Shown piece after piece: positions 38,420 to 62,272 of a DNA stretch of 64,000 bases. Under the pieces are notes generated by a model. The model had not been told where the DNA came from. It did not search any database and was given only the letters and a program-made list of their open reading frames with translations. The position numbers were made by a program, and so were the translations under genes. The stretch comes from an uncultured Bacteroidia bacterium. Lineage in GTDB: Bacteria > CAIWAD01 > BS150m-G50. Within the stretch, counting starts at the first letter, position 1, and each line of letters opens with the position of its first letter. The DNA is taken from NCBI GenBank assembly GCA_964517435.1, contig CAZFEC010000010.1, positions 4,371-68,370 of the forward strand, read 5' to 3'.

Positions 38420-39065
38420 GGCGCTGTTGTTTAAGATCGACGAATTTCATACCATTGAAAACTTACAACGCCTCATGAAGTGTGCAGGGATCTCCTTTGG
38501 GCACGTGTAGATACATCAGATAGAGATGATCCGATGATGTGTACAGATGATTCAGGAACCTGCAATAACGATCCAGATCTAGTCGAACCAGGGACCATCC
38601 TAGTCGTCAGAACTGAATCAACCTGGACAATGTGGGGGGATCTATCTGTACACATCCGTAAGCTCAAAGATGATTCTTTCAGGGTATATAGCCAGAAGAA
38701 GATAGGACAGTTCGAGTCGTATTTAGGTAGTCGGCACCATTTTCAGGACGAAATGCAGCATTGCTGAAGCGCATGTAAATAGAATCATAAGCCATCTGAG
38801 CAGCCTAAGGATCCCAGCAGTTCCAAGGCTTGAAATGGGTTGTGATGGTGGTTTCACAGAGCTTCAGGTCGGAGGATATTCGGGAAAGGCGCACTACAGG
38901 TGGTGGGGCGAACCACCTGTAGGCTGGGAGGAGCTGGGAATAATTGCTGAGGAAGTTCTACAGCTATCAGGAATTCTGTCTCGAATTGAAGAAGCTAGAC
39001 AGAAAGACGGAAGTTAAACATACTAGCACTGAAATGGTTACTACAGATGAGAGCAGGAGAAGACC

Positions 39066-40055
39066 ATGACAACCTGGATGGTGCGCTCAGAAAGCGGCAC
39101 GCTTTCTGAACTGTTTCTTGAGAACAATATTGCGGCTATTGGATGGCATGAGGTCGGTGATCTTAGTGCATCGACGACGAGAAAGTCTATTGCCCAGAGA
39201 GTAAAGGCTGAATGGCCTGAGATTTCACCAGTCAGAATCGGCCTGATCACCGGAATGCTGTATCGCTTACGTAGCGAGATTGAAAGAGGCGATACGGTCA
39301 TTACCTACGATTCTCCTGCCAGGAGATACCATGTCGGGTCTGTTGAATCAGACTACCGTTACAGCGTCGAATTTCACCAGGAATACCCGAACATCAGATC
39401 CGTGAAATGGCACGGGACGATAGATAGAGATGACCTCTCAGTTCAAACCAAGAATGAACTGGGTGCAACCATGACTCTCTTCAAACTCTCACAGCAAGCA
39501 TCAGCAGAAATCGACGCAGTGGCAAAAGGAATGCCGGTGGGAGAATCTCCTGATACCGATATGGAGCAAGAGCTTGACGAGGAAGAACTTTTACGAGACA
39601 TACAGTCACGTTCTCGCGAGTTCATCAAGGATAGAATCAGCAAGATTAGCTGGGACCATATGCAGGAGCTTGTAGCGGGTCTTCTACGCTCGATGGGATA
39701 CAAAACCAGAGTATCGCCACCAGGTTCAGATCTGGGTCGCGACATACTTGCCTCACCTGACGGCTTCGGACTCGAACACCCCAGGATCATTGTCGAGGTA
39801 AAACATCGAGATAGCAGAATAGGCTCTGAACAGATACGTAGCTTCCTGGGCGGTCGACATAAAGATGATAAGGGGCTGTATGTCAGCACGGGCGGTTTCA
39901 CCAAAGACGCGCGATACGAAGCTGACCGTGCCTCCATACCTCTAACCCTTATGGACCTCGATGAACTGGTGACGGCAATAATCGACCATTATGACAATAT
40001 GGATTTAGATACCAGAGTTCTCGTTCCATTGGTCAATGTTTATTGGCCCGCGTAG
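39066..40055 (+). CDS. Mrr-cat (PD-(D/E)xK) restriction endonuclease with an uncharacterised N-terminal domain
   Basis: C-terminal WDHMQELVAGLLRSMGY...GSDLGRDILA...IIVEVKHR...GLYVSTGGFTKDA matches the Mrr catalytic-domain pattern. The N-terminal ~150 aa are not Mrr_N-like. Confidence 0.8.
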   Translation: MTTWMVRSESGTLSELFLENNIAAIGWHEVGDLSASTTRKSIAQRVKAEWPEISPVRIGLITGMLYRLRSEIERGDTVITYDSPARRYHVGSVESDYRYSVEFHQEYPNIRSVKWHGTIDRDDLSVQTKNELGATMTLFKLSQQASAEIDAVAKGMPVGESPDTDMEQELDEEELLRDIQSRSREFIKDRISKISWDHMQELVAGLLRSMGYKTRVSPPGSDLGRDILASPDGFGLEHPRIIVEVKHRDSRIGSEQIRSFLGGRHKDDKGLYVSTGGFTKDARYEADRASIPLTLMDLDELVTAIIDHYDNMDLDTRVLVPLVNVYWPA

Positions 40056-40321
40056 GCTCACCTTAGAAAAGATTTCTAGTTAATTTGAATTATGAGGGCA
40101 GCTTCTAACATCCCTCAAATGATCACTGCCGTTGAAGATGAGATTGCTGCTATTCGTAGTAGTAAACGCAGAATAACGCTTTTTTGAAAGAGTGTGCATT
40201 ATTACCCCATACATTAGCAAGCTCATCTAGTTAATTCCTAGCAGACGGTCCTACTGATGATGTCGTCAGGTCAAGGTCCGTTCAATAGATGATGATGCGG
40301 ATTTGAACAAGGTGTGCGTCA

Positions 40322-42331
40322 ATGAATGTACTGAGCTCGATTTTCCTTTCCAGTCTTACGAACCCTATTACGCTAAGTTTCCTTGCTGTGATTGGAGTCC
40401 TGCTTTTCTATGAGATCATAAGACACTTATTTTTCAATTTGTTGCGAATAGGATGGTGTTTCGCAGGCGCTCGGAAAAAACTTACAGAAGCTTCGATCGG
40501 AAAATCCGAAAATACCCAAGCAAATAGCGCCAAAATCGTCCAGGCCGCAGAACTTTTCGGAAGATCCAAGACGAATTCGAAATTCCGAAGACTATGGTCA
40601 GGTTTTATCGATTCCTGGTTGCAATCTATCCCACAAGGACGATCGAATCCAGTTGGAGCAGTCTCTGTCTACTCTGTATTTGAAGTCGAAGAAATTCTGG
40701 GTGGTGCAACTGTTGTTCGAAAACTTGAATCGATTCCAGGGAGATTGATGTCTCTGGGTATTCTTGGCACTTTTGTCGGATTGACCTATGGCTTCTACTC
40801 CATCGACATAAACCCAGACAACATGGACCAGGTTTATAGATCGATTACTAACCTGATTTCCGGCCTCAGCGTAGCTTTCGTCACCTCCATAGTGGGAATC
40901 ATTGCAGCTTTGGTCTTCATGTTCAGTGAGAAGTGGTCTTATAGCTTTGCTGCAAAATGCGTGGAGGTTTTTCTTCATGAGGCCAGTATATGCTACCCAT
41001 TCCAGGCGCCAGAAACCTCATTGCTTCATCTTTCTCATGCGGCAGATCGCCAACTGGATTCGCTGATGAGTCTTGAAAATGATTTGGCTGCGACTTTGAG
41101 TGAATCCTTCGGAGAAGCTGTGCAAGAGCACTTAGCGCCACTCATCGATGATATACACCAAACTGTTACAGAGGCAACCAACATTACTTCCGAAGTACAG
41201 ATTGAAGGAATACAAAGAATAGTAGATGGCTTCATTGAGACCATGAATCAACAGTTGGGCGCCAATTTTCAGGAGTTCGGAGACAACATAAATAAGGCAA
41301 CTTCGAATGTAGCTGAACTAATGGAAGGTTTAGAGACTTCTGTAGCCAGACAAGCATCTGTGATGGAGCGGACGGCAAGTACTGCAGATGTTCTTGAGAG
41401 ACAGTTGCCACATCTTATCGCGTTTGGTGAGCAGCTTGATAAATCAAGCAATTCACTTCAAGAAGTTATCGCAGGAATTGACAAAATGAGAGCCAGTTTG
41501 CTGGCCAGTTTTAAAGAAGCTCAAGAGACGCAAAAACAGATCACTGAAAAGCATAGCTATCTGGTTGAAAGTGTACACAAAACAGTACAAGAGCTATCAG
41601 CGACAAATACATCGTTAATTGCCTCACAAGAGCTGATGCAGAAGCTCTTTCAGGAATCTCTCCGGTCCTTTGAAGCTCAGGTGCGGGAGGGATTGAAACA
41701 GTCTCTTTCGTCTTTCGACATTGTGTTGAGCGATATCTTGGAAAGGTTTAGTGGAACCTTGGCAGAGATGCGAGATCAGTATGAAGCACTGGAGCAGCAT
41801 ACTATCTCGCTACGTGAGGGTACGGAGGCATATTCTTCAACTATGACAGTCAGTCTGGAACAAATCGAATCGATTTTTACGAAGTCCCAGCAGGATCTTG
41901 TCAATTTAACCAACGAGTTCATACCTGTCCTCTCTCAGAACCTTGAGCAGGGACGCAAACAGGCGGCAAATATCGCTAAACATCAAGAAGAGCTGAACAA
42001 AGCATCGTTCAAATTGGAAACCAACATGCAAGCTCTAATCGAGGAGTTGAACCAGATCCCAGCGAAGATGACAAACGAGATCGAAAAGAGGACGGGCGAC
42101 TTTCTGGTGGCATTCACTAAAGAAATACGTCATGAGATAGAAAGGCATAACCAGTTACTTACCGAGGTGCACGATCTGGGGAGTCAACTTGAGAAAACCA
42201 CCTCGAGTTTAGGATCCAACTTCGGTCAGATGAGCAAATCAGTTATAGACTTGACGAACAGAATTGCTGAATCGGCAAAGCCTGAGGAGCAACAAAAACC
42301 GCGGCGTAGATTGTCATTGTTTGGGAGATAA
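40322..42331 (+). CDS. zorA: ZorA-like MotA/ExbB-type channel protein with long helical tail
   Basis: TM helix near the N-terminus, then a TM pair (GRLMSLGILGTFVGLTYGF and LISGLSVAFVTSIVGIIAALVFMF) like MotA/ExbB. After that come about 430 aa rich in E/Q/L/K. Followed by MotB-like, EH-signature and SNF2 genes. Confidence 0.8.
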   Translation: MNVLSSIFLSSLTNPITLSFLAVIGVLLFYEIIRHLFFNLLRIGWCFAGARKKLTEASIGKSENTQANSAKIVQAAELFGRSKTNSKFRRLWSGFIDSWLQSIPQGRSNPVGAVSVYSVFEVEEILGGATVVRKLESIPGRLMSLGILGTFVGLTYGFYSIDINPDNMDQVYRSITNLISGLSVAFVTSIVGIIAALVFMFSEKWSYSFAAKCVEVFLHEASICYPFQAPETSLLHLSHAADRQLDSLMSLENDLAATLSESFGEAVQEHLAPLIDDIHQTVTEATNITSEVQIEGIQRIVDGFIETMNQQLGANFQEFGDNINKATSNVAELMEGLETSVARQASVMERTASTADVLERQLPHLIAFGEQLDKSSNSLQEVIAGIDKMRASLLASFKEAQETQKQITEKHSYLVESVHKTVQELSATNTSLIASQELMQKLFQESLRSFEAQVREGLKQSLSSFDIVLSDILERFSGTLAEMRDQYEALEQHTISLREGTEAYSSTMTVSLEQIESIFTKSQQDLVNLTNEFIPVLSQNLEQGRKQAANIAKHQEELNKASFKLETNMQALIEELNQIPAKMTNEIEKRTGDFLVAFTKEIRHEIERHNQLLTEVHDLGSQLEKTTSSLGSNFGQMSKSVIDLTNRIAESAKPEEQQKPRRRLSLFGR

Positions 42332-42336
42332 CGCAC

Positions 42337-43056
42337 TTGTTTATCAATAGGTCAAAATCCAAGCAGGCTGGTTCAGACTTCTCTGGTTTCTGGATTCCGT
42401 ATAGCGATCTTATGGCCGGCATGCTTGGGATCTTTGCCCTTCTTCTAGTCACGACTGTATACAAACTGGGCGATCCCATCCAGAGCGTAAAAGATGTATT
42501 GGAAGAACGCCAGGAAGTTGTCAGAGAACTCAAAGCTAAGTTTGTTGCGGATGAGGATGTGGAGATAACAGATGCTGGTGCATTGCGTATGAAAGGGGAG
42601 GTTCTATTCGAAATCGACGAAGATACACTCAGTCCAGGAGGGCGCGAACTGCTTCTAAGGGTAATGCCGAAGTATCTTGATGTGGTATTGTCTTTCACTG
42701 GCTTTCGCAAGCATCTAAGTCGAATTCTCGTCGAGGGTCACGCTGATCCTACATATCGTACTGATGATACATTGGCAGCCTATATCTATAACCTAGATTT
42801 ATCCCAGCGAAGAGCGGCTAATGTGGTGAGTTTCCTTGTAGAAACTCCCGAAATGACGCCTTATCGTCCAATTCTGAGGCAGTATGTGATGGCATCTGGG
42901 CGGTCCAGTACCGACTTAGTGTTTGACAAATCAGGTGCCCCAGATTATGATCGATCGCGAAGAATACAGATAGATTTCGTCATGAGGGATCAGGGGCTAC
43001 TCGAGGAAGTGCTAAAACGGATGTTTCCGATGCTTGGAGAAGAGCGACGTGACTGA
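42337..43056 (+). CDS. zorB: ZorB-like MotB/OmpA-domain protein
   Basis: N-terminal FWIPYSDLMAGMLGIFALLLV (conserved Asp before the TM, as in MotB). C-terminal OmpA-like VEGHADPTY...LSQRRAANVVSFL. Confidence 0.85.
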   Translation: MFINRSKSKQAGSDFSGFWIPYSDLMAGMLGIFALLLVTTVYKLGDPIQSVKDVLEERQEVVRELKAKFVADEDVEITDAGALRMKGEVLFEIDEDTLSPGGRELLLRVMPKYLDVVLSFTGFRKHLSRILVEGHADPTYRTDDTLAAYIYNLDLSQRRAANVVSFLVETPEMTPYRPILRQYVMASGRSSTDLVFDKSGAPDYDRSRRIQIDFVMRDQGLLEEVLKRMFPMLGEERRD

Positions 43057-44209
43057 GGCATTATATTCGTTTCAGAATCTGAAGAATACAGCCTTATTCG
43101 TCCAGGATCAACACAGTGTTCTAGGGCAACTCCAGGGGGAGGTTTTAGAGAGTATTCTTGCGCAACTGGTGGAGAAGATTGAGAAATGCGACACATCTAG
43201 TATAACAGCGTTTGCACGCGCACTAACGCGCAAGGAAACAGGACTTCTGCTTCATGTTTTAGTGCAGGATTACTCTTCCGGGCTGATCAGTAAGACATTA
43301 CAAATCATCGACATACGGGCTAAACCACGGCAACTTGCCATAGGTTGGTTTCTATTCAAGAATTATCCTAGCAGTCAACAGCTACGAGAAGGACTAGTCG
43401 CTGTAGCATCCTCGCTGGATCCAAAGCAAATCCGATCATCGAGTGTGTCCGAGAGAGCGTTTCGAATTTTCGGAGCGAGCGATATTGACGAAGCTCTAGT
43501 AGAAGACCTGACACAATCCAATGCTCTGCTTGTAGACTGGCTGTCACAAGATTCACCTTATAAGGATAAATCGCAGGCGGCAAGCATTCCGCTTTACAGG
43601 TGGTTACAGGACATGATACTTGTCAAGGGGAACCGTTATCTTCTTCTTCGCCACGGGATAAACCAAATAGACACATGGTTCTCTGGCTTGCAGGCAAAAC
43701 ATTATCAAAGCGCTTCAGCGAATTACATCAACTCGCTTCAGGAACAGGAATGGCTTGTAAGTAGGATCGAAGAGATTGTATCGCGCTTCGGGTTGCCAGC
43801 TTCCCAAAGCGACTTCTGGCTAAAGGTTGACGTTTCTAAAAAGCAAGCAATCCAGAGGCTTATCGGCCACAGGTTGATTGCGGAGTTTTTTGAAGATGTT
43901 GATGATCCGAATGGAAGGTTCTTCTTCTGGCAAGAGTATGTAGACTATCTTACCGGTGTAGTGTATCCCAGTAGCAGGTCCAGGATACTGCTTAAGTTCA
44001 CCAATTTCCTACTCGTAGAATTCCGTGATATAGGAAATGCGGGTTACATTTATCCTCTAGACGAGCATAGATGGCTTGAAACTGTAGTTGCTGATGATTC
44101 ACGATCGCACCAGGACTGTAAGGATCAATACAGAGCTTCTTACCGGATTATTCACAGTAAGAACTGGCAAAGCAACGTTGAAGATTTCCTTGAATGGCAG
44201 CTCTTATGA
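43034..44209 (+). CDS. zorC: ZorC-like EH-signature-domain protein
   Basis: The C-terminus RFFFWQEY...LLVEFRDIGNAGYIYPLDEHRW...HSKNWQ resembles the EH_Signature domain. The start (TTG 43034 or GTG 43049) overlaps the zorB stop. Confidence 0.7.
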   Translation: MEKSDVTEALYSFQNLKNTALFVQDQHSVLGQLQGEVLESILAQLVEKIEKCDTSSITAFARALTRKETGLLLHVLVQDYSSGLISKTLQIIDIRAKPRQLAIGWFLFKNYPSSQQLREGLVAVASSLDPKQIRSSSVSERAFRIFGASDIDEALVEDLTQSNALLVDWLSQDSPYKDKSQAASIPLYRWLQDMILVKGNRYLLLRHGINQIDTWFSGLQAKHYQSASANYINSLQEQEWLVSRIEEIVSRFGLPASQSDFWLKVDVSKKQAIQRLIGHRLIAEFFEDVDDPNGRFFFWQEYVDYLTGVVYPSSRSRILLKFTNFLLVEFRDIGNAGYIYPLDEHRWLETVVADDSRSHQDCKDQYRASYRIIHSKNWQSNVEDFLEWQLL

Positions 44210-46980
44210 CAAACCAATACGCTGATTGCAAAACAAGTTGGGATCTGAATAGTGCCGGTCTTCAGTTTGAAGTGATCGGCGAAACGCCTCCTGTTAATCA
44301 ACTAATGCTTCTATCACCGCGCGTCCGACAACAATGCCAGATTCTGAGAGAGTTAGAACTGGATGGAACTGCATTAAAAGCTAACGGTTTCAGGTGGATT
44401 ATTCCACCTGACGAAGTATATGCGATTGAGAGTGAAGAACGAGAGATATTGGGGTTACCCACTCCGTCGAAAATAAAAGCCAGCGTTATCACACAAAGAG
44501 AAAGGGTTGAACGTATTCGGAGACTTGGACTCGACTTACGACACCCTGAACACGGAGTGCTTACCGGTGCAAAAAGATATGGAGGTTTCATTGCTGTTGG
44601 TGGTGGTGAGTTCGTCTTGATGAGTTCCGAGCTAAGAGAGTTGGATAAACACCTTCAGAACGGGCCTGAAGTGGAGTCCTATGAGTCTACAGCAGCAGCG
44701 CAACAAGCCTATCATGCGACCGCTCAGAGATTAGCCAGGGTAGCTGGAGTTGAAGTTGAATCATGGCTGAAAAGAGAGGAATACCTCTTTCCAGCAACAA
44801 TCGGTGTGACGTTAGATGGCAACGTTGATCAGGGCTTAATCATCCACCCAAATGCTGAAGGCGTGAAGGAAGAGGTACTGCAAAGTCGTTTGGAGAAGAG
44901 TGCGGGTAAGAAAGGTGTGATATGGGTAAGTGATGGCAGGAAGAGAATCCGAATGGTCCTCAGCCCTGAGCAGCGCAGAATCGTTCAAGACTTGGAGAAG
45001 AAAGGTAAACGCATTTCTCCAGAAGAACTTGGGTCTTTCATCGATAATCCCGATGAGTTCTTACCGGAGGGTATTGACCTCTCTGAGTTTTCAAAACGAG
45101 TCAAGGGGTTAAAGCTGCGTGTGTATGATTCGAGGCCGTATGTCCATATTAGAAAGGACAAACTTAAGTGGTTCCCAACAGTGAGTGTTAAGCTGAACCA
45201 GGAAACAGCGGATCATAGCAGAAAGGGGACTGCTGATGAAGATACTCCCCCGTTAGATAGTGGTGACTTTCTGGAAAAAGCTAAAACTGCTATGGCTGAG
45301 GGGAGATCGCACTTTGTTCATAATGGAGCGATAATCAGATTTGATCCAAACACTGTTGAATCTCTTTCGAAGGTCGAAGAAATCGCTGGCCCCAGATTCA
45401 ATGGGGGTATCACGGGAACCCCAAATTATATCCTGGATATATTTGAAAATCTGAATGCTTTGGAATACTCAATTGAAGCTGAGCAAATCGAAGAAGAAGA
45501 TCAACAAAACCTCGTCCGTGAAATACTATCGTTCCAACAGCCTCAGATTCTGAATGCTAACTTGAAACCATTTCAAGATGTAGGCTACCGCTGGTTAAGA
45601 ACACTCGACCAACGAAAACGAGGTGGTCTGCTTGCAGATGATATGGGGCTAGGGAAGACCCTACAAGTAATCGGATTACTTGCTGCCCGTAAAGAAGAAA
45701 CCAGATCTGCACCATCACTAGTTGTCGTACCAAAAACACTGATAGACAATTGGTATGAAGAGATCCAGAGATTCTGCCCGACATTGCGAATTGGCAATTA
45801 CAGGGGTGGTGATGTTTCTGGCCAAGAAGACTTCATCCACTACGACGTTGTTTTAGTAACTTATGAAACCCTTCGTCGCAATCAACTTCACCTTGCTCGA
45901 ACAGACTGGAGAGTTGTTATCTGCGACGAAGCACAGGCTATCAAGAATCCCACCACAGGCAGGACGACTGCTGTAAAAGGGCTTAAGTCAGAAATGCGCG
46001 TGGCTATGACCGGTACTCCTGTGGAGAATGGATTATCCGAGTTGTGGTCGATTATGGATTGGGTTCAGCCAGGATTACTCAATTCGCGACAGGAGTTTCG
46101 TGACTTTTTTGAGAAACCTATTGTTGGAGCGACAGACGATGAAGAACGTACGAATAGTGTCAGGAAACTACAGGCAAAGATTAATGACCACTATCTACGA
46201 CGTCTAAAAACCGAAGTGCTCGAAGGAATGCCCAAAAAGGAGGTGATAATCGAACGGGCGCAATTGAGTGACTTGCAGTTGAATCATTACATTTCACTGG
46301 TAGAACAGGCTCGCGAGGGTGGTAGAGGGGTGATGTTGGCATGCTTGCAGAAATTACTCCTGTTATGTGCTTGCCCTTGGGATGATGAACAATTAAGCAA
46401 AGCTGTTGGTAGCGATAGTGAGCTTGAGGAATGCCCGAAGCTAAGACTACTTTTTGAAGTACTAGATGCTGTGAAAACAAGTGATGAGAAAGCTCTGATC
46501 TTTCTGGATAGAAAGCCCGTGCAGCGCATGCTGCAGAACGTTCTCTTCCACCGGTACGGTTTTGCGCCTGATTTGATTAATGGTGATATTACAGAGGGGC
46601 GGCAAGGGTTGGTGAATCGATTTAACAGTTCGAGTGGTTTCAATCTTATGATTCTTTCAACCCGTGTTGGTGGTACAGGACTGAATATCACTTCAGCAAA
46701 CCATGTAATCCACTATATGAGGCCCTGGAATCCCGCCATAGAGAACCAGGCAACTGATCGCGTATATAGAATTGGGCAGGATAAACCAGTCAGTGTTTAC
46801 GTCCCGATAGCTACATGGCCGAACGGTCAAGATAAATCTGTAGAGGAGGTTTTGGCGGACTTAATAGAAGCGAAAACACAACTTGCTGAAAATGTTATTA
46901 TACCAACAGCAAGAGTATCGTTAGAGGACGATGTAATGAAAAGGGTGTTTCGTAGCAAAGAGTCAAAGACAGCCGATTAG
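44194..46980 (+). CDS. zorD: ZorD-like SNF2-family helicase/nuclease-associated ATPase
   Basis: LADDMGLGKTLQ (motif I), DEAQAIKNP (II), TGTPVEN (III), and C-terminal STRVGGTGLNITSANHVIHYMRPWNPAIENQATDRVYRIGQ. ATG 44206 would give an ATGA overlap with the zorC stop. Confidence 0.8.
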   Translation: MAALMTNQYADCKTSWDLNSAGLQFEVIGETPPVNQLMLLSPRVRQQCQILRELELDGTALKANGFRWIIPPDEVYAIESEEREILGLPTPSKIKASVITQRERVERIRRLGLDLRHPEHGVLTGAKRYGGFIAVGGGEFVLMSSELRELDKHLQNGPEVESYESTAAAQQAYHATAQRLARVAGVEVESWLKREEYLFPATIGVTLDGNVDQGLIIHPNAEGVKEEVLQSRLEKSAGKKGVIWVSDGRKRIRMVLSPEQRRIVQDLEKKGKRISPEELGSFIDNPDEFLPEGIDLSEFSKRVKGLKLRVYDSRPYVHIRKDKLKWFPTVSVKLNQETADHSRKGTADEDTPPLDSGDFLEKAKTAMAEGRSHFVHNGAIIRFDPNTVESLSKVEEIAGPRFNGGITGTPNYILDIFENLNALEYSIEAEQIEEEDQQNLVREILSFQQPQILNANLKPFQDVGYRWLRTLDQRKRGGLLADDMGLGKTLQVIGLLAARKEETRSAPSLVVVPKTLIDNWYEEIQRFCPTLRIGNYRGGDVSGQEDFIHYDVVLVTYETLRRNQLHLARTDWRVVICDEAQAIKNPTTGRTTAVKGLKSEMRVAMTGTPVENGLSELWSIMDWVQPGLLNSRQEFRDFFEKPIVGATDDEERTNSVRKLQAKINDHYLRRLKTEVLEGMPKKEVIIERAQLSDLQLNHYISLVEQAREGGRGVMLACLQKLLLLCACPWDDEQLSKAVGSDSELEECPKLRLLFEVLDAVKTSDEKALIFLDRKPVQRMLQNVLFHRYGFAPDLINGDITEGRQGLVNRFNSSSGFNLMILSTRVGGTGLNITSANHVIHYMRPWNPAIENQATDRVYRIGQDKPVSVYVPIATWPNGQDKSVEEVLADLIEAKTQLAENVIIPTARVSLEDDVMKRVFRSKESKTAD

Positions 46981-47052: not shown

Positions 47053-47796
47053 CTATTCTACCCCCCCCAGCAGACTAATTTCTAATTCCCCCTTCAACTT
47101 CTTCCACTGCGGCACTTCAGAGGCCAGCAGATCGTAAAACGCGCGACCGTGCTTCCTATGCTTCACATGACACAACTCATGGATAATGACATAGTCAATA
47201 TGCCGTGTCGCGGCCTTGATAAGCTCTTGATTCAGAATCACCCGATAGGTCTTCTGTGAATAGCTCCCCCAGCGCCGGGTCATCTGCTTGACCATCAATC
47301 CAGGCGTCTCCCTGTAGTTGAACTTCGCAACACAAGCCTGCAGCCGTTCGACGAAAACACTGTGCGCTCTTTCCCGGTACCACGCCTCAATAAGTTCTCG
47401 ATTATGTGCAGGTTTCTTCGGCTGGGAGGTGAATACGGTTAGCGTCCCATACTGAAGCGAGACCCGTTCCCTGCTTCTATCATTGCGAATCAGCAACTTG
47501 TAGTTCCGGCCGCGGTATCTGAAGGTTTCGCCACTGACAAATCGCTTCTCAGGACTCTGCTTGAACTGCGCGAAGTAACGCTGCTGTTTCAGCACCCATC
47601 GGAACTTCCGGCGCAGAAAGCAGTCGATGCGTTCGTCTGCCGCTTTCAGTGGCGCCTTCAAGACTACTGTTTGTGAGGGGAGCACAGACACAGCGATGGT
47701 TTTTCTCCCCTCCAACACCAGGTGGTAATCGAAAGAAACTTCCTGGTGAGAGAAATGCCGCTTGACCGAATCTGTGATCCTGAGTTCGTCATTCAT
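47053..47796 (-). CDS. YgjP-like (DUF45/M48-type) metal-dependent hydrolase
   Basis: HELCHVKHRKHG motif. ATG 47796 overlaps the hsdR stop as ATGA. The longer track ORF (to 47955) overlaps hsdR and is rejected. Confidence 0.8.
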   Translation of the reverse strand: MNDELRITDSVKRHFSHQEVSFDYHLVLEGRKTIAVSVLPSQTVVLKAPLKAADERIDCFLRRKFRWVLKQQRYFAQFKQSPEKRFVSGETFRYRGRNYKLLIRNDRSRERVSLQYGTLTVFTSQPKKPAHNRELIEAWYRERAHSVFVERLQACVAKFNYRETPGLMVKQMTRRWGSYSQKTYRVILNQELIKAATRHIDYVIIHELCHVKHRKHGRAFYDLLASEVPQWKKLKGELEISLLGGVE

Positions 47797-50700
47797 TGAG
47801 TCCGGTTCTCCACCCCCAGATTCCAGACCAGCGTAATCATGTTGTCGATTTCGTCTGTGGATAAAGGAATGCTGTACTCGTCCCTGGCGACATCGAAAAG
47901 GTAATCCTCCAACGCCATTCGAACTCGACGCTGCACCTCGATATTCCGGTGCCAATCAACAATCTTGTCTCTCTCTACCAACTTATACATGGCCTGAGCC
48001 ATCTCGCTAAGCTGATCCGGGGTGACGGAATGAGCTTCTAGCTCAGTCTTGAGGTTCCGGTAGAATGGATGGAATTCCTTCCTTTCCTTGATTACTTCAG
48101 GGATATCATCGGCCTCATACCCGCTTACCTGCTGCTGGTACTCCTGTACGAGCATCAGCAGCGCCTTCAGGTCCTCCTGCCGAGCGTCCTTCAGCTCCTC
48201 AATCAGTTTCTTGATCTTGTCACTGAACCGCCTGTAGAATTCCGGATCCCGGTGATAGTTCTCCTTGATTGTCCGTTTTGTCTGAGCAGCAATCGCTTCG
48301 GCCTTCGACCGGTCTGATAGACCACGTTCGGTGCTGGTAATGTATGCATTGAATTCCGTCGGCTCGCTGATCTGCAGCGGCTCGGTCAGCTCTATCACAT
48401 AGTCGGAAGAAACGTGCTTGTCCAGAATGCGGCGGATCTGGTCCTCATACTTCGAGAAATCGATCTCCTCCGCATGCTTGATCTTCTGGATCTTTTTCAG
48501 TTCCACGAATCGCTTGAGGTCACGCTGGTACCTGCGCAGCTTGTCGGCGTCGAACTTCTGCGTGAAGTCGTAGAGCATCTGACAGGTCGCGTACTGTTTC
48601 ATGTATTCATTCACCAGCTCATAGAAATGCTCGCGCGTTTCGACATCCTCCTCCAGAACGCGGACATAGGCTTCGGTGTCCTGCTGGTTCTTCACCGCGG
48701 TGAATATCGCATGCAGCTCCTGGTACACCCGCTCCAGTTCAGCGACCTTCTCGTCTGAATTGAGCAGGGCACGTTCGATGTCCTCGGGATCATAGTTCGA
48801 GAACAGCTGTATTGCGTTATACAGGTTCTGCGCATTCTTCGAATAGTCGATGACAAAACCGTTGACCTTGGCCTCACGGCCTTCGTCGCCATCAAAGAGG
48901 CGGTTCACACGTGCAATAGCCTGCAGCAGGTTATGATCCCTGAGCTGCTTGGCGAGATATAGAAAAGTGTTGCGGGGCGCGTCAAAACCGGTCAGCAGCT
49001 TGTCTACCACGATCAGGATGCGAACACCTTCCGGATTCTCCTTGAAGTCCCTGATCAGGTTCTTCTCCCGCGTTTCCAGTGAGGTTCCATGCCTGTGTTT
49101 CTCCTCGCCGAGCCAGGCGGCTACGATCTTCTTGTGCTCCGGAAGCTTGTCATCCTCCTCTTTGTCCGCCGTATCGGATATGATCACCTCGACTGAAACC
49201 TGCTCCTGCAGATCAAAGGCTTTCTGGAACATCACAGCGGCGTACTTTGAGGGGGCGACGACCTGCGCCTTCAGGCCTGTGCCGAGGAACTGCCGGTAGT
49301 GGTTCAGGATATCCAGCGCTATCGTTTCTATGCGCTGAGAAGTCTCCTCGATTATCTGTGATGAATTGAACTTCTGCTGAAGATCCTGTTTCTGCTGTTC
49401 CGTCAGATCCCGGGTGATCTGATCGTAGAACTGGTCAAGGAGTGCACGTTGAACGCGCTGTTCCACAAACCGGGGCTGATAGATCAACGGCAGAACGACA
49501 CCATCCTGTTCGGCTTCCGATATTGTGTAGGCGTCGATCATCCCGCCGAACTTCTGTTCGCTGGTTTTCTCGCGCTTCATCAGCGGGGTGCCGGTGAAAC
49601 CGATCTGGCACGCCCGCGGCAGGAACAGGTTCAGCTCGATGTTGGCCTTGCCCGCCTGAGAGCGATGCGCCTCGTCGATCAGGATGAAGACGTTCGGATC
49701 GTCGTCCACGAAATCCCGCATTGCACTGGACGCTTCGAACTTGTGAATCAGCGAGGTTATGACCCGCTGGTCTTTCTCCCTGATCAGGCGCAGCAGTTCT
49801 CTGGCACTGCGGGTGCGTTTGACCTCCTTCTTGATATTGCAGGCGGCAAAAGTGTCGCTGATCTGCTTGTCCAGATCGCGCCGGTCGGTGACCACGACAA
49901 CACGCGGCAGCTCAATGTCTGGATCATCGATCAGGCATTTGACCAGCATCACCATCGTCAGGCTCTTCCCGGTACCCTGAGTATGCCAGATTAAACCGCC
50001 CTGGCGCCTGCCCTGTTCGTCGCATGTCTTCAGCCGCCTCAGCGCCTTTTTGATCGCGAAGTACTGCGGGTAGCGCGCGATCTTTTTGATGTTGCTGTCA
50101 TAGAGGATGAAGTTGCGGATCAGGTCCAGTAGGCGCTCCGGGCGGAGCAGGCTGTAGATGCCGCGATCCTGCTCTGTGACTGTTCGCTCCGCAGTCTGTG
50201 TGAAATTCTGACGGATCAGATCGTTCGCGACCTGGGAGACAACAGCCGGATCAACCGGCTGGTTGATGACTGCCGCAACTTCAGCGTCAGATGTCTCGGC
50301 ATCAGCATCCTTCTCCTTCCAGTGGGCATAGAAGCGCGCGGGTGTGAGCATGGTGCCGTATTTCAACTCACGCACATTGGTGGCGATCAGTATCTGCGGG
50401 AAGAGGAAGAACTTCGGCGTTTCGTGCCGGCCCTGGTTGCGCACCATCTGCGCAACCGCGTCATCCACCTTGACAGATTCCTTCTTGTTTTCGATCACCG
50501 CAAAGGGGAATCCGTTAACGAACAGGACGATATCGGGGCGGCGCTCATGTCCTTCCGCAAGCTCGAATTCGGCACAGACGTGGAAGGTGTTGTTTTCCGG
50601 CGATGCGAAGTCGATGAACCTCAGTTGGGGAGATACGCGGCGTCCGTTCACCAGTTCCGAAACAGAGCGGCCGGCGATCAGCAGGGAGTAGATCTCTTCT

Positions 50701-50972
50701 GACGCTCGGTAAGCGCCGTCACCCATCTGGATGCTGTTCTCCGCTTCGAAGATCGCGTCGCGGATGCTCTTGTCGGAAATGCTGTCGCTGTTGATTCTGC
50801 GCAGAGCCTCGAAGGCGATGTCGCGGAGGATGTACTGCGAGGTGTTCTCCCGCATTGCGGTAATTTCGGCACGCGGGATGTATTTATAACCTAGATTCGC
50901 CAGCTCCAGCAGGGCCGGGATCTGGGAGGCGGAGGCCTCGTCGAAATCGGGGAGGTCGAATTCGTGACTCAT
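47793..50972 (-). CDS. hsdR: Type I restriction enzyme R subunit
   Basis: 1059 aa. HTQGTGKSLTM (motif I) and ILIDEAHRSQ (DEAH box). C-terminal helicase region. ATGA overlaps with hsdS and the ygjP-like gene. Confidence 0.9.
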   Translation of the reverse strand: MSHEFDLPDFDEASASQIPALLELANLGYKYIPRAEITAMRENTSQYILRDIAFEALRRINSDSISDKSIRDAIFEAENSIQMGDGAYRASEEIYSLLIAGRSVSELVNGRRVSPQLRFIDFASPENNTFHVCAEFELAEGHERRPDIVLFVNGFPFAVIENKKESVKVDDAVAQMVRNQGRHETPKFFLFPQILIATNVRELKYGTMLTPARFYAHWKEKDADAETSDAEVAAVINQPVDPAVVSQVANDLIRQNFTQTAERTVTEQDRGIYSLLRPERLLDLIRNFILYDSNIKKIARYPQYFAIKKALRRLKTCDEQGRRQGGLIWHTQGTGKSLTMVMLVKCLIDDPDIELPRVVVVTDRRDLDKQISDTFAACNIKKEVKRTRSARELLRLIREKDQRVITSLIHKFEASSAMRDFVDDDPNVFILIDEAHRSQAGKANIELNLFLPRACQIGFTGTPLMKREKTSEQKFGGMIDAYTISEAEQDGVVLPLIYQPRFVEQRVQRALLDQFYDQITRDLTEQQKQDLQQKFNSSQIIEETSQRIETIALDILNHYRQFLGTGLKAQVVAPSKYAAVMFQKAFDLQEQVSVEVIISDTADKEEDDKLPEHKKIVAAWLGEEKHRHGTSLETREKNLIRDFKENPEGVRILIVVDKLLTGFDAPRNTFLYLAKQLRDHNLLQAIARVNRLFDGDEGREAKVNGFVIDYSKNAQNLYNAIQLFSNYDPEDIERALLNSDEKVAELERVYQELHAIFTAVKNQQDTEAYVRVLEEDVETREHFYELVNEYMKQYATCQMLYDFTQKFDADKLRRYQRDLKRFVELKKIQKIKHAEEIDFSKYEDQIRRILDKHVSSDYVIELTEPLQISEPTEFNAYITSTERGLSDRSKAEAIAAQTKRTIKENYHRDPEFYRRFSDKIKKLIEELKDARQEDLKALLMLVQEYQQQVSGYEADDIPEVIKERKEFHPFYRNLKTELEAHSVTPDQLSEMAQAMYKLVERDKIVDWHRNIEVQRRVRMALEDYLFDVARDEYSIPLSTDEIDNMITLVWNLGVENRTQ

Positions 50973-52294
50973 GTTGCATCTCCGCTGTCAGCGGTAGATG
51001 AGGTCTTGTTGACGAATTGAGGCAGGCGGATGGTGCCGGTGACCAGGTTATTGAGGAGGAAGCGTTTTTGGGATTTGAGGGCGGCTAGTTTGGACACAAG
51101 GATTGCTATCTCTTTTTCAAGACAAATGAAAACAGAAGCAATTGCCGACTGTTCCTGCTCTTGTGTTGGAAGCGCCAGCCGATTGGACAGAAATGTCGAA
51201 TTTGTAATGTTGATCGTATTCTTTGCGCCTTTCTGAATGATTGGTCTCAGATAATTGCCCGTATTTATTTTGGATTCGAAGTAGCAGTCGAGTAGTAGTC
51301 CAAGTGATGTGGTGACTGGTGTGAAGACCCCGTAAAGAGGGGATACAATGACACTCTCTGAAAGCCTGCTTTGCTTGATGATACCATATGGGAAATCGCC
51401 CGTAGGGCTCTTTGTATATACTATATCGCCCGGCTTCACGAGATTATACCTTGAAGTGTCTACTGCAGCAAATGATCGCCCCATATGCTCGACCTGGTTT
51501 ACTAATCCTTTGTGCACTGAAACAGAGTACACCGTTTCTCTACCGGAGCTTGTCTCTTTGTGTTCATGGAGAACTTCGCCCAAGCGCACTTCTTTCCATT
51601 CCCTATCAAATCCAGGTAGCCGTTGCTTCCCAGAGAGCAACCTCTGCATCAACCCTTTCTTGATGATTCGCTTCTTTTCGAGCTTTCGCTCATGTTCTCG
51701 AATCGCCTTGTCCCAGCATTCCAGGATTTCGGCTATGGCTTTTTGCTCGGGGAGGGGGGGGAGGGGGATGGGGAGAGCTATGAATTGCTCTCTTGTAAGA
51801 TGTGCGAAGCTGGTCTCTCCGATGAAACCACGTATACGTGGTGTCCGAACTGCTTTATACAAGAAGCTCATGGCAAAGAAAGGGGACACATTTTTCTTTC
51901 TGGGGCGGAGACGATGCAGCGCCTTCTGAAAATAGCATGGACTTATCTCCTCATGCCATATGGCGCATCGACCGATTTCGCCTCCCTCGCAAACAAGAAG
52001 ATCGCCATCTCTCAGCTCAAATTTCTCCTTCTCGCTCTGAGAAAAAGCCATCGTGCGTACGTCTGAAAGGTCAAAGCCTCCCCAACGAACATTGAAATTT
52101 GCTAAGTAGGAACTTTGACCTCTCGCTTCTCTCGCCTTCTTGCTTAGCATCTTTCCAAGCTGAATCTCAAATATATCGCCGAAAGAAGGGCATTCCCATT
52201 CCATGGGAATCCACCCGACTTTCGTCTTCTTGTAGCCTGGCCGATTGTGGTTGTTGAGATTCATTATTCTTCTACTGTGACGAATTTGAATCAT
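50969..52294 (-). CDS. hsdS: Type I R-M specificity subunit (two target-recognition domains)
   Basis: Two TRD-like halves separated by the conserved helix LPPLPEQKAIAEILECWDKAI, ending LPTQEQEQSAIASVF...LKSQKRFLLNNL. Confidence 0.85.
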   Translation of the reverse strand: MIQIRHSRRIMNLNNHNRPGYKKTKVGWIPMEWECPSFGDIFEIQLGKMLSKKAREARGQSSYLANFNVRWGGFDLSDVRTMAFSQSEKEKFELRDGDLLVCEGGEIGRCAIWHEEISPCYFQKALHRLRPRKKNVSPFFAMSFLYKAVRTPRIRGFIGETSFAHLTREQFIALPIPLPPLPEQKAIAEILECWDKAIREHERKLEKKRIIKKGLMQRLLSGKQRLPGFDREWKEVRLGEVLHEHKETSSGRETVYSVSVHKGLVNQVEHMGRSFAAVDTSRYNLVKPGDIVYTKSPTGDFPYGIIKQSRLSESVIVSPLYGVFTPVTTSLGLLLDCYFESKINTGNYLRPIIQKGAKNTINITNSTFLSNRLALPTQEQEQSAIASVFICLEKEIAILVSKLAALKSQKRFLLNNLVTGTIRLPQFVNKTSSTADSGDAT

Positions 52295-53982
52295 CGCCGA
52301 CTTTCATGCTGTTCGCGAATACTTGCGACAACATCATTCAATCTTTTCAATGCGTTAGATGCTTCTTTCTTATCAATCTCGTATTGCACGCGAATTCTAC
52401 CTAGTTCTGCTTGTGGGTTCTTTACCAGAACATGTTTCCGATCACCCCAGACTCTTTCTCCAATTGCTACGATATTGCCACCCTGCCAACCACCTCTTTG
52501 CAGCCATCGAGACGGCCCATTCCTGCGGAATAACTGTAGAAAAACATAGCTTGGGCGTTTCGGCCATGGAATCCCTTTGTCCATAATCCCTGAGCGAGAT
52601 TTAACAAATCGGCGACGGCCTATCTTGGTCAGGTCTGTTAATATGTTCTCGATGAGAACTCGATCCTCACCATCACTTGGATGTGTGAGATGTGCACGAA
52701 CCTCTACCCGTGCAATTCCGCTGACTGACAAGTTTTGAATTCCCAGGATCACATAGCGCCCTTTTGCAGGAAGCAAACCATGACTTTGCCATTCCGTGAG
52801 TAACAACCTCTTCAGCTTCTTCAGGCTAGACTTGAAAACCTTATACCATGCGCGGATTGATGAAATATAACGAGGCTCATTGCACCATAGAAGTTGTGTG
52901 TCCGCAAGAATTTCAGGGAATCGAGTCATCGGTGAATTCTCTTCCAAGAGTTCCTCAAGGATCTTTGGAAGAATGATAACAAGTGAGGGGACTCCTTGGT
53001 CCGAATCAATCTCGAACAGGAATCGGTCGAATCCTGTGGCGCCCTGATTCAGCAACTCCCGCGCTACTCTGCTTGATTCAAGAATGATCTGATTCCTTGA
53101 TTTCGTGTCAACAGCTAGCGCCACATGTAATTGTCGACCCGCGAAGCGGGTGAAGGATTCGATGCCACCGAGAAATCGAAGACCATCACGCGTCACCATT
53201 CCGGCTGTAGCTTTAACAGCAAGTGATAGAGGAGGTTTTTGAGATCGAGGAATAGAATGCTTGTTCCTGAGCCAGAAGAGTTGCAAGGCTAAACATAGGC
53301 AAACGCACGTTCTCGCTAGATCATCAAACAAGTAGAGGAAATCTAACGAGCTTAATTTGTGCGGGTTCGCGGAACCAAATTCGATCTCTAAGCCTGTAAA
53401 TCTGACCTTCCCATGCGCAATAGCATTTCGCGCAAGATCATCATACCCCTCCGTTAATACACTGAGGCCCTGCGATTTGAACATCGAGACAGCATTCTTG
53501 AGAATGAACTTGCCATTTACGTCACCCTTTTTTCGCACGGACCAAATGACAGATGATAAATTCCCAAGCACATGTTCTGTCAAGTATAAGTATTCAGGGA
53601 GAAAGTAGTTTGCTATAGTAAGCAGCTCACGAGCCTGACCATGGCTATATGCATCCTGGAGATCCTTTGTTGGGCTCTCCCGATGTAGATTCTCAATGCC
53701 GAGTTGCAGACTATCAGATCGCCTATCAATGGCTGCAAAGGTTCGGGATAGATCATTCTCCAATAGATCGATGATTCCAGCTACTGTTGATTCATCCCAG
53801 TATGTCAGTGGCGGTGATTCAGTAAAAGGTCGAAGAACGAGAACTTCGCGGCCACATATGTCTTCTGGAATTAAACCAGAAAATCTACTTATGATGCGAT
53901 CGATAGATAGTTCGTGTTCGATTTGAGCAAGAGGATCTGCTCCAATCAAGTCAGAAATCGTCTTGTTGCTCATATCCATCAA
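52291..53982 (-). CDS. Unknown 563-aa protein embedded in the type I R-M operon; contains a HEPN-like RNAIAH motif
   Basis: Long clean ORF whose stop overlaps the hsdS start (ATGA at 52291-52294). The Rx4H motif ARNAIAHG is encoded at 53413-53430. No other motif recognised. Confidence 0.6.
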   Translation of the reverse strand: MMDMSNKTISDLIGADPLAQIEHELSIDRIISRFSGLIPEDICGREVLVLRPFTESPPLTYWDESTVAGIIDLLENDLSRTFAAIDRRSDSLQLGIENLHRESPTKDLQDAYSHGQARELLTIANYFLPEYLYLTEHVLGNLSSVIWSVRKKGDVNGKFILKNAVSMFKSQGLSVLTEGYDDLARNAIAHGKVRFTGLEIEFGSANPHKLSSLDFLYLFDDLARTCVCLCLALQLFWLRNKHSIPRSQKPPLSLAVKATAGMVTRDGLRFLGGIESFTRFAGRQLHVALAVDTKSRNQIILESSRVARELLNQGATGFDRFLFEIDSDQGVPSLVIILPKILEELLEENSPMTRFPEILADTQLLWCNEPRYISSIRAWYKVFKSSLKKLKRLLLTEWQSHGLLPAKGRYVILGIQNLSVSGIARVEVRAHLTHPSDGEDRVLIENILTDLTKIGRRRFVKSRSGIMDKGIPWPKRPSYVFLQLFRRNGPSRWLQRGGWQGGNIVAIGERVWGDRKHVLVKNPQAELGRIRVQYEIDKKEASNALKRLNDVVASIREQHESRR

Positions 53983-54034
53983 TTGCTAGAGTATTGAAAG
54001 ACTTACTCATTGAGTGCTTTCCGTATTATCGGGG

Positions 54035-55087
54035 TCAGTCATTTTGATGTGTGTCCTCACCCCCACCCCTCTTCGCCATATCCTCCAACCGCTTTATCGA
54101 CTCCACCTCACCCAACTGCTCTTTCTGCTTCCTGCGACTGTCGGCAAATTGATCATACTCAGCGCGCGCGTGTGTCTCAGCATCTTCCTTACTGACACTT
54201 CCCGCATGACCCAAAACACGCCTTTCATTGAACGCGAGAAACTCGTCGAGCTTCGTCTCCCAATCCTGCATGAAGACCTGTTTGCGCCGCAGCGCCTGGT
54301 CCTCGGCGAAGTCGAGCCACATTACGACGATGCGGTTCAGCTCGTTGATTTCATTCTCCTGCAGGTAGTTCTTAGCCACGGTGACATCGGTCTTGCGCAC
54401 CTCCTCCTTCTGCCAGGAGGTCAATCCCATGTTAGGCAACTGAGCATTTGCACGTGACTGAATGATCTCGGCTGCAGTCATGCCGGTCGCGGCGAAGTGC
54501 AGCTTGTTCTGCATGACGCTGAAGAACTTGGTGGTCTCCGGCTGAGTGGGTTCATAGTCAGCCGCCATGGCGAAAATCTCGCGAACACGCAGATACATGC
54601 GCCGTTCACTGGCTCTGATGTCCCGGATGCGGGCGAGCATCTCGTCGAAGTAGTCGGGAACCGGCGATCCGGCCACCGGCGGATTCTTGAGCCGCTCATC
54701 GTCAAGCGTGAAACCTTTGACGATGTACTCCTTGAGACGCGCCGTGGCCCAGATCCGGAAACGTGTGGCGATGATGCTCTTAATGCGGTAGCCGACCGAG
54801 ATCACCATGTCCAGGCTATAGTAGTCAAGCCTTCTCTGGACCTGCCTGGTACCCTCCTGGCGAACTGTTAAGAAATCCTTAACAGTTGACTCGGGCGAAA
54901 GCTCCCCCTCCTCGTAGATATTGCGAATGTGTATGTTGATATTTGGAACTGAGGTCTGGAACAGCTCCGCCATCATCTGCTGGGTCAACCAGATCGTTTC
55001 GTTCTCCAGGCGCACGTCTATTTTTACCTGACCGTCATCAGTCTGATAAACCAGCAACTCGCCCTTCTGCGGCAGTTCCTCTCTCAT
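54035..55087 (-). CDS. rhuM: RhuM-family protein
   Basis: The N-terminus LLVYQTDDGQVKIDVRLENETIWLTQQMMAELFQTS...NIHIRNIYEEGEL and VISVGYRIKS...RFRIWAT are as I recall for RhuM-family proteins. ATGA overlap with the hsdM stop. Confidence 0.75.
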   Translation of the reverse strand: MREELPQKGELLVYQTDDGQVKIDVRLENETIWLTQQMMAELFQTSVPNINIHIRNIYEEGELSPESTVKDFLTVRQEGTRQVQRRLDYYSLDMVISVGYRIKSIIATRFRIWATARLKEYIVKGFTLDDERLKNPPVAGSPVPDYFDEMLARIRDIRASERRMYLRVREIFAMAADYEPTQPETTKFFSVMQNKLHFAATGMTAAEIIQSRANAQLPNMGLTSWQKEEVRKTDVTVAKNYLQENEINELNRIVVMWLDFAEDQALRRKQVFMQDWETKLDEFLAFNERRVLGHAGSVSKEDAETHARAEYDQFADSRRKQKEQLGEVESIKRLEDMAKRGGGEDTHQND

Positions 55088-56601: not shown

Positions 56602-57173
56602 CCTCTTCTCCTTCCGGACGATCTTACACTCAGTTCTTTATCCAGAATCTGACGGTAAAGCTCTTGTTTTCGGTTTGAAAGTGTGGTGTATCTCGTCGCT
56701 GCCTCGTCCAAAGCGATCAGCGTTTTCTGTCGAGCCGTTGAGGGAACCGGTATATCCATGTTCTCGAAATTTGTTAGACTAACAAATGGTATAGTGGTAT
56801 GTTCATAGTAGCGCTGGAAAAGCCGCTGTCCAATTGCGGAGTTGATGTAACCGGCCACGTACTCCGGCAGGACCGATTGATCTTTGATTGTCAATACAAT
56901 GATGGATGACGGCACTATCCATGTTTCTGTGGAAGGGAGGTTGAAGACTGCAGCAGCGAACCGGCCGCGGTTAACGATTAATACTTCCTGAGGCTGCAGC
57001 GGCAGTGCTTTGGATTTGTCTGTACGCAGGGGGGGCTCTTTTCCGAAAGTTATCAAGCCTTCGGGTGTGATGTTCTTAGGCTGTATCAACAGTGCATCGC
57101 CGTCTCGTAAATGCGCTACGCTTTTTCTGAAAGCATATCCCGTTCTTACGTTACCGAAGTCCTTAAATTTCAA
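56598..57173 (-). CDS. Half-size (single-TRD) HsdS-like specificity protein
   Basis: One TRD plus the conserved helix (IPVPSTARQKTLIALDEAATRYTTL). AAGGAG lies 5 nt upstream of TTG 57173. ATGA overlap with the hsdM start at 56598-56601. Confidence 0.7.
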   Translation of the reverse strand: MKFKDFGNVRTGYAFRKSVAHLRDGDALLIQPKNITPEGLITFGKEPPLRTDKSKALPLQPQEVLIVNRGRFAAAVFNLPSTETWIVPSSIIVLTIKDQSVLPEYVAGYINSAIGQRLFQRYYEHTTIPFVSLTNFENMDIPVPSTARQKTLIALDEAATRYTTLSNRKQELYRQILDKELSVRSSGRRRG

Positions 57174-57276
57174 AGCCACTCCTTGTTTATAACAGTAGTA
57201 ACATATTGCCGATTGAAAGTCAAGAGAAAAATGAAATGCAGTAGCTGAATACTGCTTTAGGTAAACATGCTGCCCC

Positions 57277-58497: not shown

Positions 58498-58512
58498 CTG
58501 ATGAGGGTTGTG

Positions 58513-59325: not shown

Positions 59326-59351
59326 GCATTATTCCTGGGATGTAACCGACC

Positions 59352-60887: not shown

Positions 60888-60954
60888 TTCGTCTCATCTG
60901 GTTCCCCTGCTTTCAAATACCTATATTCTTGCTAGCTGAACCCCGGAGCCCCCC

Positions 60955-62067: not shown

Positions 62068-62272
62068 TGACTGGCTGCCGGCATATTGATACCTGTCACA
62101 CACGCGTTTAGCGTCCTTCATTCATCTTCACCCTAGAAATCCACCAGCCATGTCTTATATTGTCAAAAGCCCGCTCGCGGGACGAGAGACCGGCAATCTC
62201 CAAATGGATGATGAGCTGTAAATGCGGGCAGGAAGTCTGGATGAAGATGATGGGCAACGACCGTAATCCAAC

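Follow-up and report, generated by a model that had tools for sequence, protein, structure and literature searches.

The window analysed here is a stretch of 64,000 nucleotides (nt) from contig CAZFEC010000010.1 (assembly GCA_964517435.1) of an uncultured Bacteroidia bacterium. Between its positions 40,322 and 46,980 lie four genes that we interpret as an intact type I Zorya anti-phage operon (zorABCD), which belongs to a compact sub-clade of this system and sits on an island of low guanine-cytosine (GC) content; we give this reading a probability of about 0.85. An earlier note, made from the sequence alone, had proposed a complete type I zorA-zorB-zorC-zorD module at this place, and the PADLOC profiles, the closest solved relatives and the folds of ZorC and ZorD all agree with that proposal. 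The E-values of ZorA, ZorB and ZorD against Zorya profiles range from 1e-36 to 1e-230 and are far beyond chance. The same zorABCD order is found in the type I Zorya of E. coli NCTC9026 (EcZorI; 8qyd for ZorAB, 8r68 for ZorC and 8qy7 for ZorD; PMC11946911), and the type I system of Shewanella sp. ANA-3 (8vvn; PMC11890865) is comparable in its ZorAB part only.

The four genes and their products

The four open reading frames (ORFs) were found on the + strand at the coordinates given by the earlier note; they are co-directional, have intact frames and follow the canonical order zorA-zorB-zorC-zorD. The first gene, zorA (40322..42331, +), starts with ATG and encodes a stator-like membrane subunit of 669 amino acids (aa) with a long cytoplasmic helical tail. 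It is followed by zorB (42337..43056, +; 239 aa), whose TTG start has a GGGAG motif 8 nt upstream and whose MotB-like product combines a single transmembrane helix with a peptidoglycan-binding domain of the OmpA type. The last two genes are zorC (43049..44209, +), encoding a short EH-signature protein, and zorD (44206..46980, +), encoding an SNF2-family ATPase with a ZorD-type N-terminal domain. The gap of 5 nt between zorA and zorB and the overlaps at the zorB/zorC and zorC/zorD junctions are likewise as the note had described them.

Two of the start codons were revised. The start of zorC is most likely the GTG at 43049, since this is the position used in the public gene calls and in its two closest homologues; the protein then has 386 aa, compared with 391 aa from the TTG at 43034, and its gene overlaps zorB by 8 nt. 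The most likely start of zorD is the ATG at 44206 (924 aa, with an ATGA overlap with zorC), the alternative being the ATG at 44194 (928 aa). Public calls also differ in the length of zorA (527 versus 669 aa) and of zorB (214 versus 239 aa). Population variants were considered as the source of these differences and rejected: across six independent metagenome assemblies the locus shows 100% DNA identity over its whole length, with all frames open, and the differences are therefore due to the gene callers only. Upstream of zorA, the 266 bp at 40056..40321 (+) constitute the sole sizeable non-coding gap ahead of the tightly coupled operon and are presumed to hold its promoter and leader, a role that we only infer; a consensus promoter scan found no site within this gap, and between 38.3 and 47.3 kb the promoter- and terminator-like sites that were scanned for are about as numerous as expected by chance.

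The best PADLOC match of ZorA is the type I model ZorA1 (PDLC00601, 3.5e-36), and the type II and type III ZorA models score below the type I models. The MotA_ExbB match on which the earlier note had made its reading of 40322-42331 depend was found in Pfam (29.4 bits; cut-off 22.9), and the NCBIfam model antiphage_ZorA_2 was also matched above its threshold (120.8 bits; cut-off 100). By sequence, the closest solved ZorA is that of the Shewanella type I complex 8vvn (2.4e-15, residues 39-425), followed by E. coli 8qyd, with P139, T150 and S189 aligned with P136, T147 and S184 of the E. coli protein. Hydrophobic segments lie at ~6-41 and ~175-204, and the MotA/ExbB-like core is continued by a C-terminal helical tail of ~440 residues, poor in Pro and Gly and, in keeping with the E/Q/L-rich tail of the note, composed of 11.8% E, 10.6% L, 9.7% S and 8.7% Q over 414 residues. 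The E. coli type I ZorA is longer (729 aa, with a tail of 507 residues), so that the tail in the window is ~65 residues shorter; by simple proportion to the published 70 nm of the E. coli tail (PMC11946911), its length would be ~60 nm.

The third transmembrane helix of ZorA contains Thr188-Ser189 where E. coli ZorA has Gly-Ser. The Shewanella sp. ANA-3 ZorA (8vvn; 696 aa) has Thr-Ser too, and a Thr...Thr-Ser polar ring is common to both proteins; in the Shewanella ZorA, Na+ was seen bound to this ring (PMC11890865). A sodium-driven motor may be suggested by this pair with low confidence, because a Thr/Ser-Ser pair is common to all seven ZorA proteins from related loci that were compared, non-marine members included.

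ZorB matches the type I model ZorB1 best (PDLC00609, 1.2e-51, 173 bits) and almost from end to end, with residues 4-227 on positions 4-227 of 232. The Pfam OmpA family is matched with 30.4 bits (cut-off 27.2), and the MotB models reach just 19-28 bits, far under their cut-offs. The closest solved chains by sequence belong to the type II complex 8vvi and to the type I Zorya complexes 8qyd and 8vvn, the ZorB of the window being nearer to the Sulfuricurvum type II protein (8vvi) than to that of Shewanella. The conserved Asp that the earlier note had located in a YSDLM motif is present as Asp24, aligned with the essential transmembrane Asp26 of E. coli ZorB (8qyd_F), and in the OmpA-type domain Y151, N152, L155 and R159 are identical to the peptidoglycan-binding residues of the E. 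coli protein.

The strongest match of the operon is that of ZorD, whose residues 45-922 cover positions 53-905 of the 908 of the PADLOC model ZorD1 (PDLC00633, 1.6e-230, 766 bits). In Pfam, SNF2-rel_dom (206 bits) and Helicase_C (63.5 bits) are both above their curated cut-offs, and a sequence comparison with solved structures placed E. coli ZorD first (8qy7, 3.5e-81). The SNF2 helicase motifs named in the earlier note, DEAQ (574-577) and motif VI (QATDRVYRIGQ, 848-858), are both present together with GLGKT (481-485); E519 is the equivalent of E. coli E651, and K484, D574 and E575 are among the conserved functional residues. An AlphaFold2 model built from 52 homologues (predicted local distance difference test, pLDDT, 84.5) matches 8qy7 over its whole length (E 2.8e-54, template modelling (TM) scores of 0.68/0.70, 987 aligned columns), and the remaining SNF2 fold matches cover the ATPase core only, ~500 residues. 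Since the full-length fold match is only to ZorD, a ZorD-specific N-terminal domain is present, smaller than that of E. coli. The E. coli protein, which also combines a toroid-forming N-terminal domain with an SNF2 core, has 1080 aa against the 924 aa found here; the N-terminal domain is smaller and the loops are shorter in the window, with 26% identity in the structural alignment. Where the ATPase core begins, the two proteins are already offset by ~123 residues, and ~29 more accumulate between motifs I and II.

ZorC and the compact branch

A number of observations weigh against the assignment. Curated NCBIfam equivalogs of the E. coli type are not reached by ZorB (ZorB1, 45.7 bits against a cut-off of 400) or ZorD (363.8 against 1500), in the same way that ZorA falls short of ZorA1 (36.6 against 750), and NCBIfam gives no match at all for ZorC. 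ZorB contains no cysteine and consequently lacks the two disulfides that are functionally required in E. coli ZorB (PMC11946911), and the Ca2+-site residues E86 and E89 of E. coli ZorA are aligned with Gly and Asp. ZorC is the weak link. Taken alone, it scores 21.7 bits against Pfam EH_Signature, under the curated cut-off of 27.5; its sequence matched no solved structure, even with E-values of up to 10 allowed; it has 386 aa compared with 560 in E. coli and lacks ~100 C-terminal residues that comprise the end of the core, the linker and a globular domain; and the superposition of its model on E. coli ZorC 8r68 is loose (TM 0.39, E 2.3e-3, 14% identity). In addition, no experimentally tested member of the compact clade was found. 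The operon is accordingly a Zorya I system and not an equivalog of the E. coli-type proteins.

The identity of ZorC is supported at the level of its family. The best PADLOC ZorC model (ZorC1, 9e-7) gives 25.9 bits, confined to the last 70 residues of the protein, and word-index searches with the single ZorC or with a three-sequence profile recovered only the window protein and two relatives with just 52-53% identity, its nearest ones. When the window ZorC and these two relatives were combined into a profile, an exhaustive HMMER search recovered 260 representative clusters (E up to 1e-3), of which nearly all are 380-410 aa long, and 118 full-length short-ZorC members were aligned. EH_Signature is matched by 75 of these 118 members (best 2e-16) and the PADLOC ZorC models by 108 (best 4e-18); the scores are never strong across the family, which indicates that the existing models cover short ZorC poorly. 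The named members carry the label "hypothetical protein". An hhalign comparison of the family with the 481-aa ZorC of locus L017, itself a strong EH_Signature match, gave a probability of 94.9% and paired RFxFW ... VEF ... G.A.Y.Y between the two.

The conserved residues point in the same direction. Invariant or near-invariant among the 118 members are R290, W294, E324, G329, N330, A331, Y333, Y335, K358, H369 and W373, and D286 is invariant among the 13 closest members. On the 560-position PADLOC ZorC model, E324 falls at ~400 and H369 at ~443, and the signature residues of E. coli ZorC are Glu400 and His443 (PMC11946911). The earlier note had recognised an EH pattern in this protein: its VEF...GNAGYIY part is present, but the signature His is H369 (H374 in the 391-aa numbering), within RIIHSKNW, and not the His of "DEH", because the former is invariant or near-invariant throughout the family and the latter is not. 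The R..W / E / H residues of the electrostatic network are common to the ZorC proteins of the window and of E. coli NCTC9026.

The AlphaFold2 model of ZorC, built on the 118-member alignment, has a pLDDT of 94.3 and a predicted TM-score (pTM) of 0.87, and consists of a helical solenoid (9-295) followed by a small alpha/beta domain (301-386). Among solved structures, its fold is best matched by that of E. coli ZorC 8r68 (probability 1.00 over 410 columns), with designed armadillo repeats coming next. Possible counterparts of the two N-terminal helices of E. coli ZorC are helices 9-21 and 25-46, for which the confidence of the model is lower. The note had regarded the lack of a significant EH_Signature match for 43034-44209 as refuting its reading; the single protein indeed stays below the cut-off, and the assignment is rescued by the evidence from the family and the structure. 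The family search, the hhalign pairing, the fold of the model and the conserved R..W / E / H residues thus support the view that this protein is an EH-signature ZorC.

The protein terminates ~17 residues after H369 and ends at positions 447-466 of PADLOC ZorC profiles that are 560-575 positions long, so the C-terminal globular domain of the E. coli-type ZorC (E. coli residues 487-560) is absent; upstream of the signature Glu it is ~70 residues shorter than E. coli ZorC. Hu et al. reported that E. coli ZorC depends on residues 487-560 both for binding DNA and for defence, and that its EH-containing core makes DNA contacts of its own (PMC11946911). With the C-terminal domain missing, DNA binding cannot take place exactly as in E. 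coli, and in the compact clade it must rest on the ZorC core alone or on ZorD. The idea of a minimised variant, advanced in the earlier note from the lengths of ZorC and ZorD, is therefore borne out for ZorC, which lacks ~100 C-terminal residues, and has to be restricted in two respects: ZorD is shorter with its fold whole, and the compact form is not unique to the window.

At least eight further loci, one of them in a cultured genome, have the same compact zorABCD layout; the compact form is an established branch of type I Zorya and not a peculiarity of the window. The cultured representative is Paenisporosarcina antarctica of the Bacillota (CP038015.1, locus L019), with a ZorA of 752, a ZorB of 230, a ZorC of 419 and a ZorD of 854 aa. 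In the same order, the lengths are 612, 231, 384 and 915 aa in L011; 519, 243, 385 and 936 aa in L014; 589, 239, 383 and 910 aa in L015, which adjoins integrases; 656, 255, 398 and 913 aa in L016; and 781, 243, 380 and 936 aa in L020. In L018 the ZorA is 469 aa as called (with an open frame of ~677), accompanied by a ZorB of 239, a ZorC of 372 and a ZorD of 1089 aa with an MIT_C domain; in L001 zorA is not on the contig, ZorB is partial, ZorC and ZorD have 386 and 921 aa, and a type I restriction-modification operon follows. ZorC in this clade spans 372-419 aa and ends directly after the EH signature, ZorD spans 854-936 aa without a fused nuclease domain (L018 apart, with its MIT_C and 1089 aa), and ZorA spans 519-781 aa. 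The identity of the ZorD proteins of the compact relatives to that of the window goes from 34% (P0215) to 69% (P0154), and the loci lie in defence islands or adjoin integrases. In the source annotations consulted, the proteins of this branch are largely called "hypothetical protein" or "DEAD/DEAH box helicase". A five-sequence ZorC alignment, searched against species-representative genomes, led to two loci only, one of which (L012) is fragmented by frameshifts.

Other relatives depart from this arrangement. Distant full-length ZorD proteins of 1040-1260 aa have a fused Mrr_cat and a longer ZorC partner, as in L017 (7001-10252), where ZorD carries an extra C-terminal Mrr_cat next to the ZorC of 481 aa; at L018 (7001-10270), the extra C-terminal domain is MIT_C and the partner ZorC has 372 aa. 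Effector modules appear to have been swapped within type I Zorya, to judge from these two ZorD proteins. At L013 (4169-8088), a distant short ZorC (409 aa) stands beside a frameshifted ZorD split into three ORFs, the last one with MIT_C; zorAB was not found upstream on that contig, and the locus looks like a decaying or orphan zorCD pair.

Alternative readings and proposed mechanism

The absence of the C-terminal domain raises the question of whether the operon is derived from Zorya and no longer E. coli-like, with a ZorC that has lost its DNA-binding domain and serves as an adaptor or regulator only, or even with the whole operon inactive. ZorC stops ~100 model positions short of the ends of the long ZorC profiles, the part that is missing is the one needed in E. 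coli for DNA binding and defence (PMC11946911), and the protein is acidic overall, with an isoelectric point of 5.7. On the other hand, the EH-containing core of E. coli ZorC itself touches DNA (PMC11946911), and the short ZorC has been kept as a large family of 260 clusters with invariant signature residues. In the close relatives it always stands beside intact zorA, zorB and zorD, which argues for purifying selection on a working system; we regard this alternative as improbable. A different possibility concerns the gene upstream of the operon, at 39066-40055 (+), 266 bp ahead of zorA and on the same strand, which encodes an Mrr-like protein of 329 aa with an N-terminal DUF8426-type domain and a strong C-terminal Mrr_cat (5e-25). 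Considering that distant ZorD relatives of 1040-1260 aa, such as that of L017, have an Mrr_cat fused to them, this nuclease could supply the same activity in trans, and the system would then be a composite of five genes. This is less probable still, given that the Mrr-like protein is a full-length match to PDC-S02 (2.7e-88), a stand-alone PADLOC single-gene candidate, that the 266-bp gap sets its gene apart from the tightly coupled operon, and that the ZorD of E. coli degrades DNA although it has no Mrr domain (PMC11946911). The nine related loci searched, six of which have a complete zorABCD, yielded no homologue of the Mrr-like protein, and the gene calls of L019 and L020 contain no Mrr_cat neighbour; the Mrr-like gene was rejected as a fifth Zorya component for its absence from all the related loci searched.

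An ordinary flagellar stator or Tol/Exb pair that happens to lie beside an unrelated helicase of a Dpd- or DISARM-type system would explain why the ZorA core and ZorB match the generic MotA_ExbB and OmpA families and why ZorD also matches the PADLOC models DpdE (284 bits) and DrmD. The Zorya models outscore these by far (766 bits for ZorD1, 173 bits for ZorB1), the 440-residue tail of ZorA has no counterpart in MotA, ExbB or TolQ, and the four genes show translational coupling and have been inherited together among the relatives. The flagellar or Tol/Exb assignment that the earlier note had named as refuting its proposal was not encountered: no flagellar, TonB or Tol partner genes occur within 30-64 kb, and TolR/TolA, Dpd and DISARM partners are likewise missing nearby. 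This explanation is effectively refuted. Among the Zorya types, PADLOC gave no matches to ZorE, ZorF or ZorG in the operon and its neighbours, and thus neither type II nor type III is indicated.

For the type I Zorya reading, a mechanism can be drawn by homology with the E. coli system (PMC11946911). It takes as its basis the observed gene content and order, the intact frames, the conservation of key residues and the folds by which ZorC and ZorD are identified, and we infer from the homologous system all of its dynamic steps, that is, motor assembly, trigger, recruitment and DNA degradation. Five ZorA and two ZorB subunits would assemble in the inner membrane into a rotary motor driven by ions, with the coupling ion carried by Asp24 of ZorB and a selectivity ring made up of T150 and T188/S189 of ZorA. 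Perturbation of the envelope by a phage would lead the OmpA-like domain of ZorB to anchor to peptidoglycan through Y151, N152, L155 and R159, whereupon the ion flow would rotate ZorA together with its helical tail. The tail would then recruit or activate ZorC, the EH-signature protein with E324 and H369, and ZorD, the SNF2 ATPase with DEAQ (574-577), and the two proteins would act on the incoming phage DNA and destroy it near the membrane. Apart from the short ZorC, the operon of the window is expected to function in the manner of a type I Zorya.

It is possible, if on the whole doubtful, that the compact clade represents a mechanistically distinct, minimal Zorya I with an EH-core ZorC, a disulfide-free ZorB and a Na+-type ZorA ring. 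Were this true and the system active, the compact form would define the irreducible core of ZorC, the target DNA would be engaged or the effectors recruited in another way than in E. coli, and in a marine host the motor might run on sodium. Zorya systems are common in phage defence, and detailed study has so far dealt only with the long-form ZorC and ZorD of the E. coli system; the locus described here is a clean, undamaged representative of a compact branch which abounds in metagenomes but has been little studied, and whose short ZorC goes unrecognised by the curated NCBIfam models. It amounts to a natural deletion experiment, in which a domain indispensable in E. coli ZorC is absent and the signature residues are kept, and the DNA-binding status of the short ZorC would clarify the role of the EH core. 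The gain is incremental, in that the type of system, its gene order and its likely mechanism were already known and the window contributes a new divergent member.

The defence island

The operon forms part of a low-GC defence island, carried in the chromosome of a marine bacterium that is uncultured and high in GC. The GC content of the operon is 0.44-0.47, compared with 0.62-0.64 in the housekeeping genes of the left flank, which encode an amino-acid permease, an FGE-sulfatase-like protein and a ferredoxin-like protein; an operon of ~45% GC next to a flank of ~63% indicates horizontal acquisition. The origin from a distant high-GC host that the earlier note had suggested has to be corrected in view of these values, as only the left flank is GC-rich. 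The GC content falls from ~0.63 to ~0.5 and below at ~38420-39065, just past the ferredoxin-like gene, and this drop marks the left edge of the island, which spans from ~38.5 kb to the end of the window and has its right end beyond it. No integrase was seen among the genes of the window that were examined, and no tRNA gene was found anywhere in the 64 kb, for which reason the boundary is not attributable to a tRNA site.

Convergent on zorD, a type I restriction-modification operon occupies 47053-56601 (-) and comprises hsdM, rhuM (PDC-S05), an ORF of 563 aa, hsdS, hsdR and ygjP, the last of these encoding a YgjP-like metallopeptidase. Two non-restriction genes, rhuM and the 563-aa ORF (52291-53982, -), are thus embedded between hsdM and hsdS; the latter ORF has no match in Pfam, NCBIfam or PADLOC and may be an uncharacterised defence-associated gene. 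Directly upstream of hsdM, a half-size HsdS-like ORF (56598-57302, -; 234 aa) with a weak Methylase_S match could be a spare or remnant specificity module. The island continues at 57277-63778 (+) with genes for an ADP-ribosylglycohydrolase, an unassigned 274-aa ORF, a DUF2779/HhH protein, a TPR protein and a protein with DUF4062, HATPase_c_4 and Fic-like_C, which may be further defence or regulatory genes.

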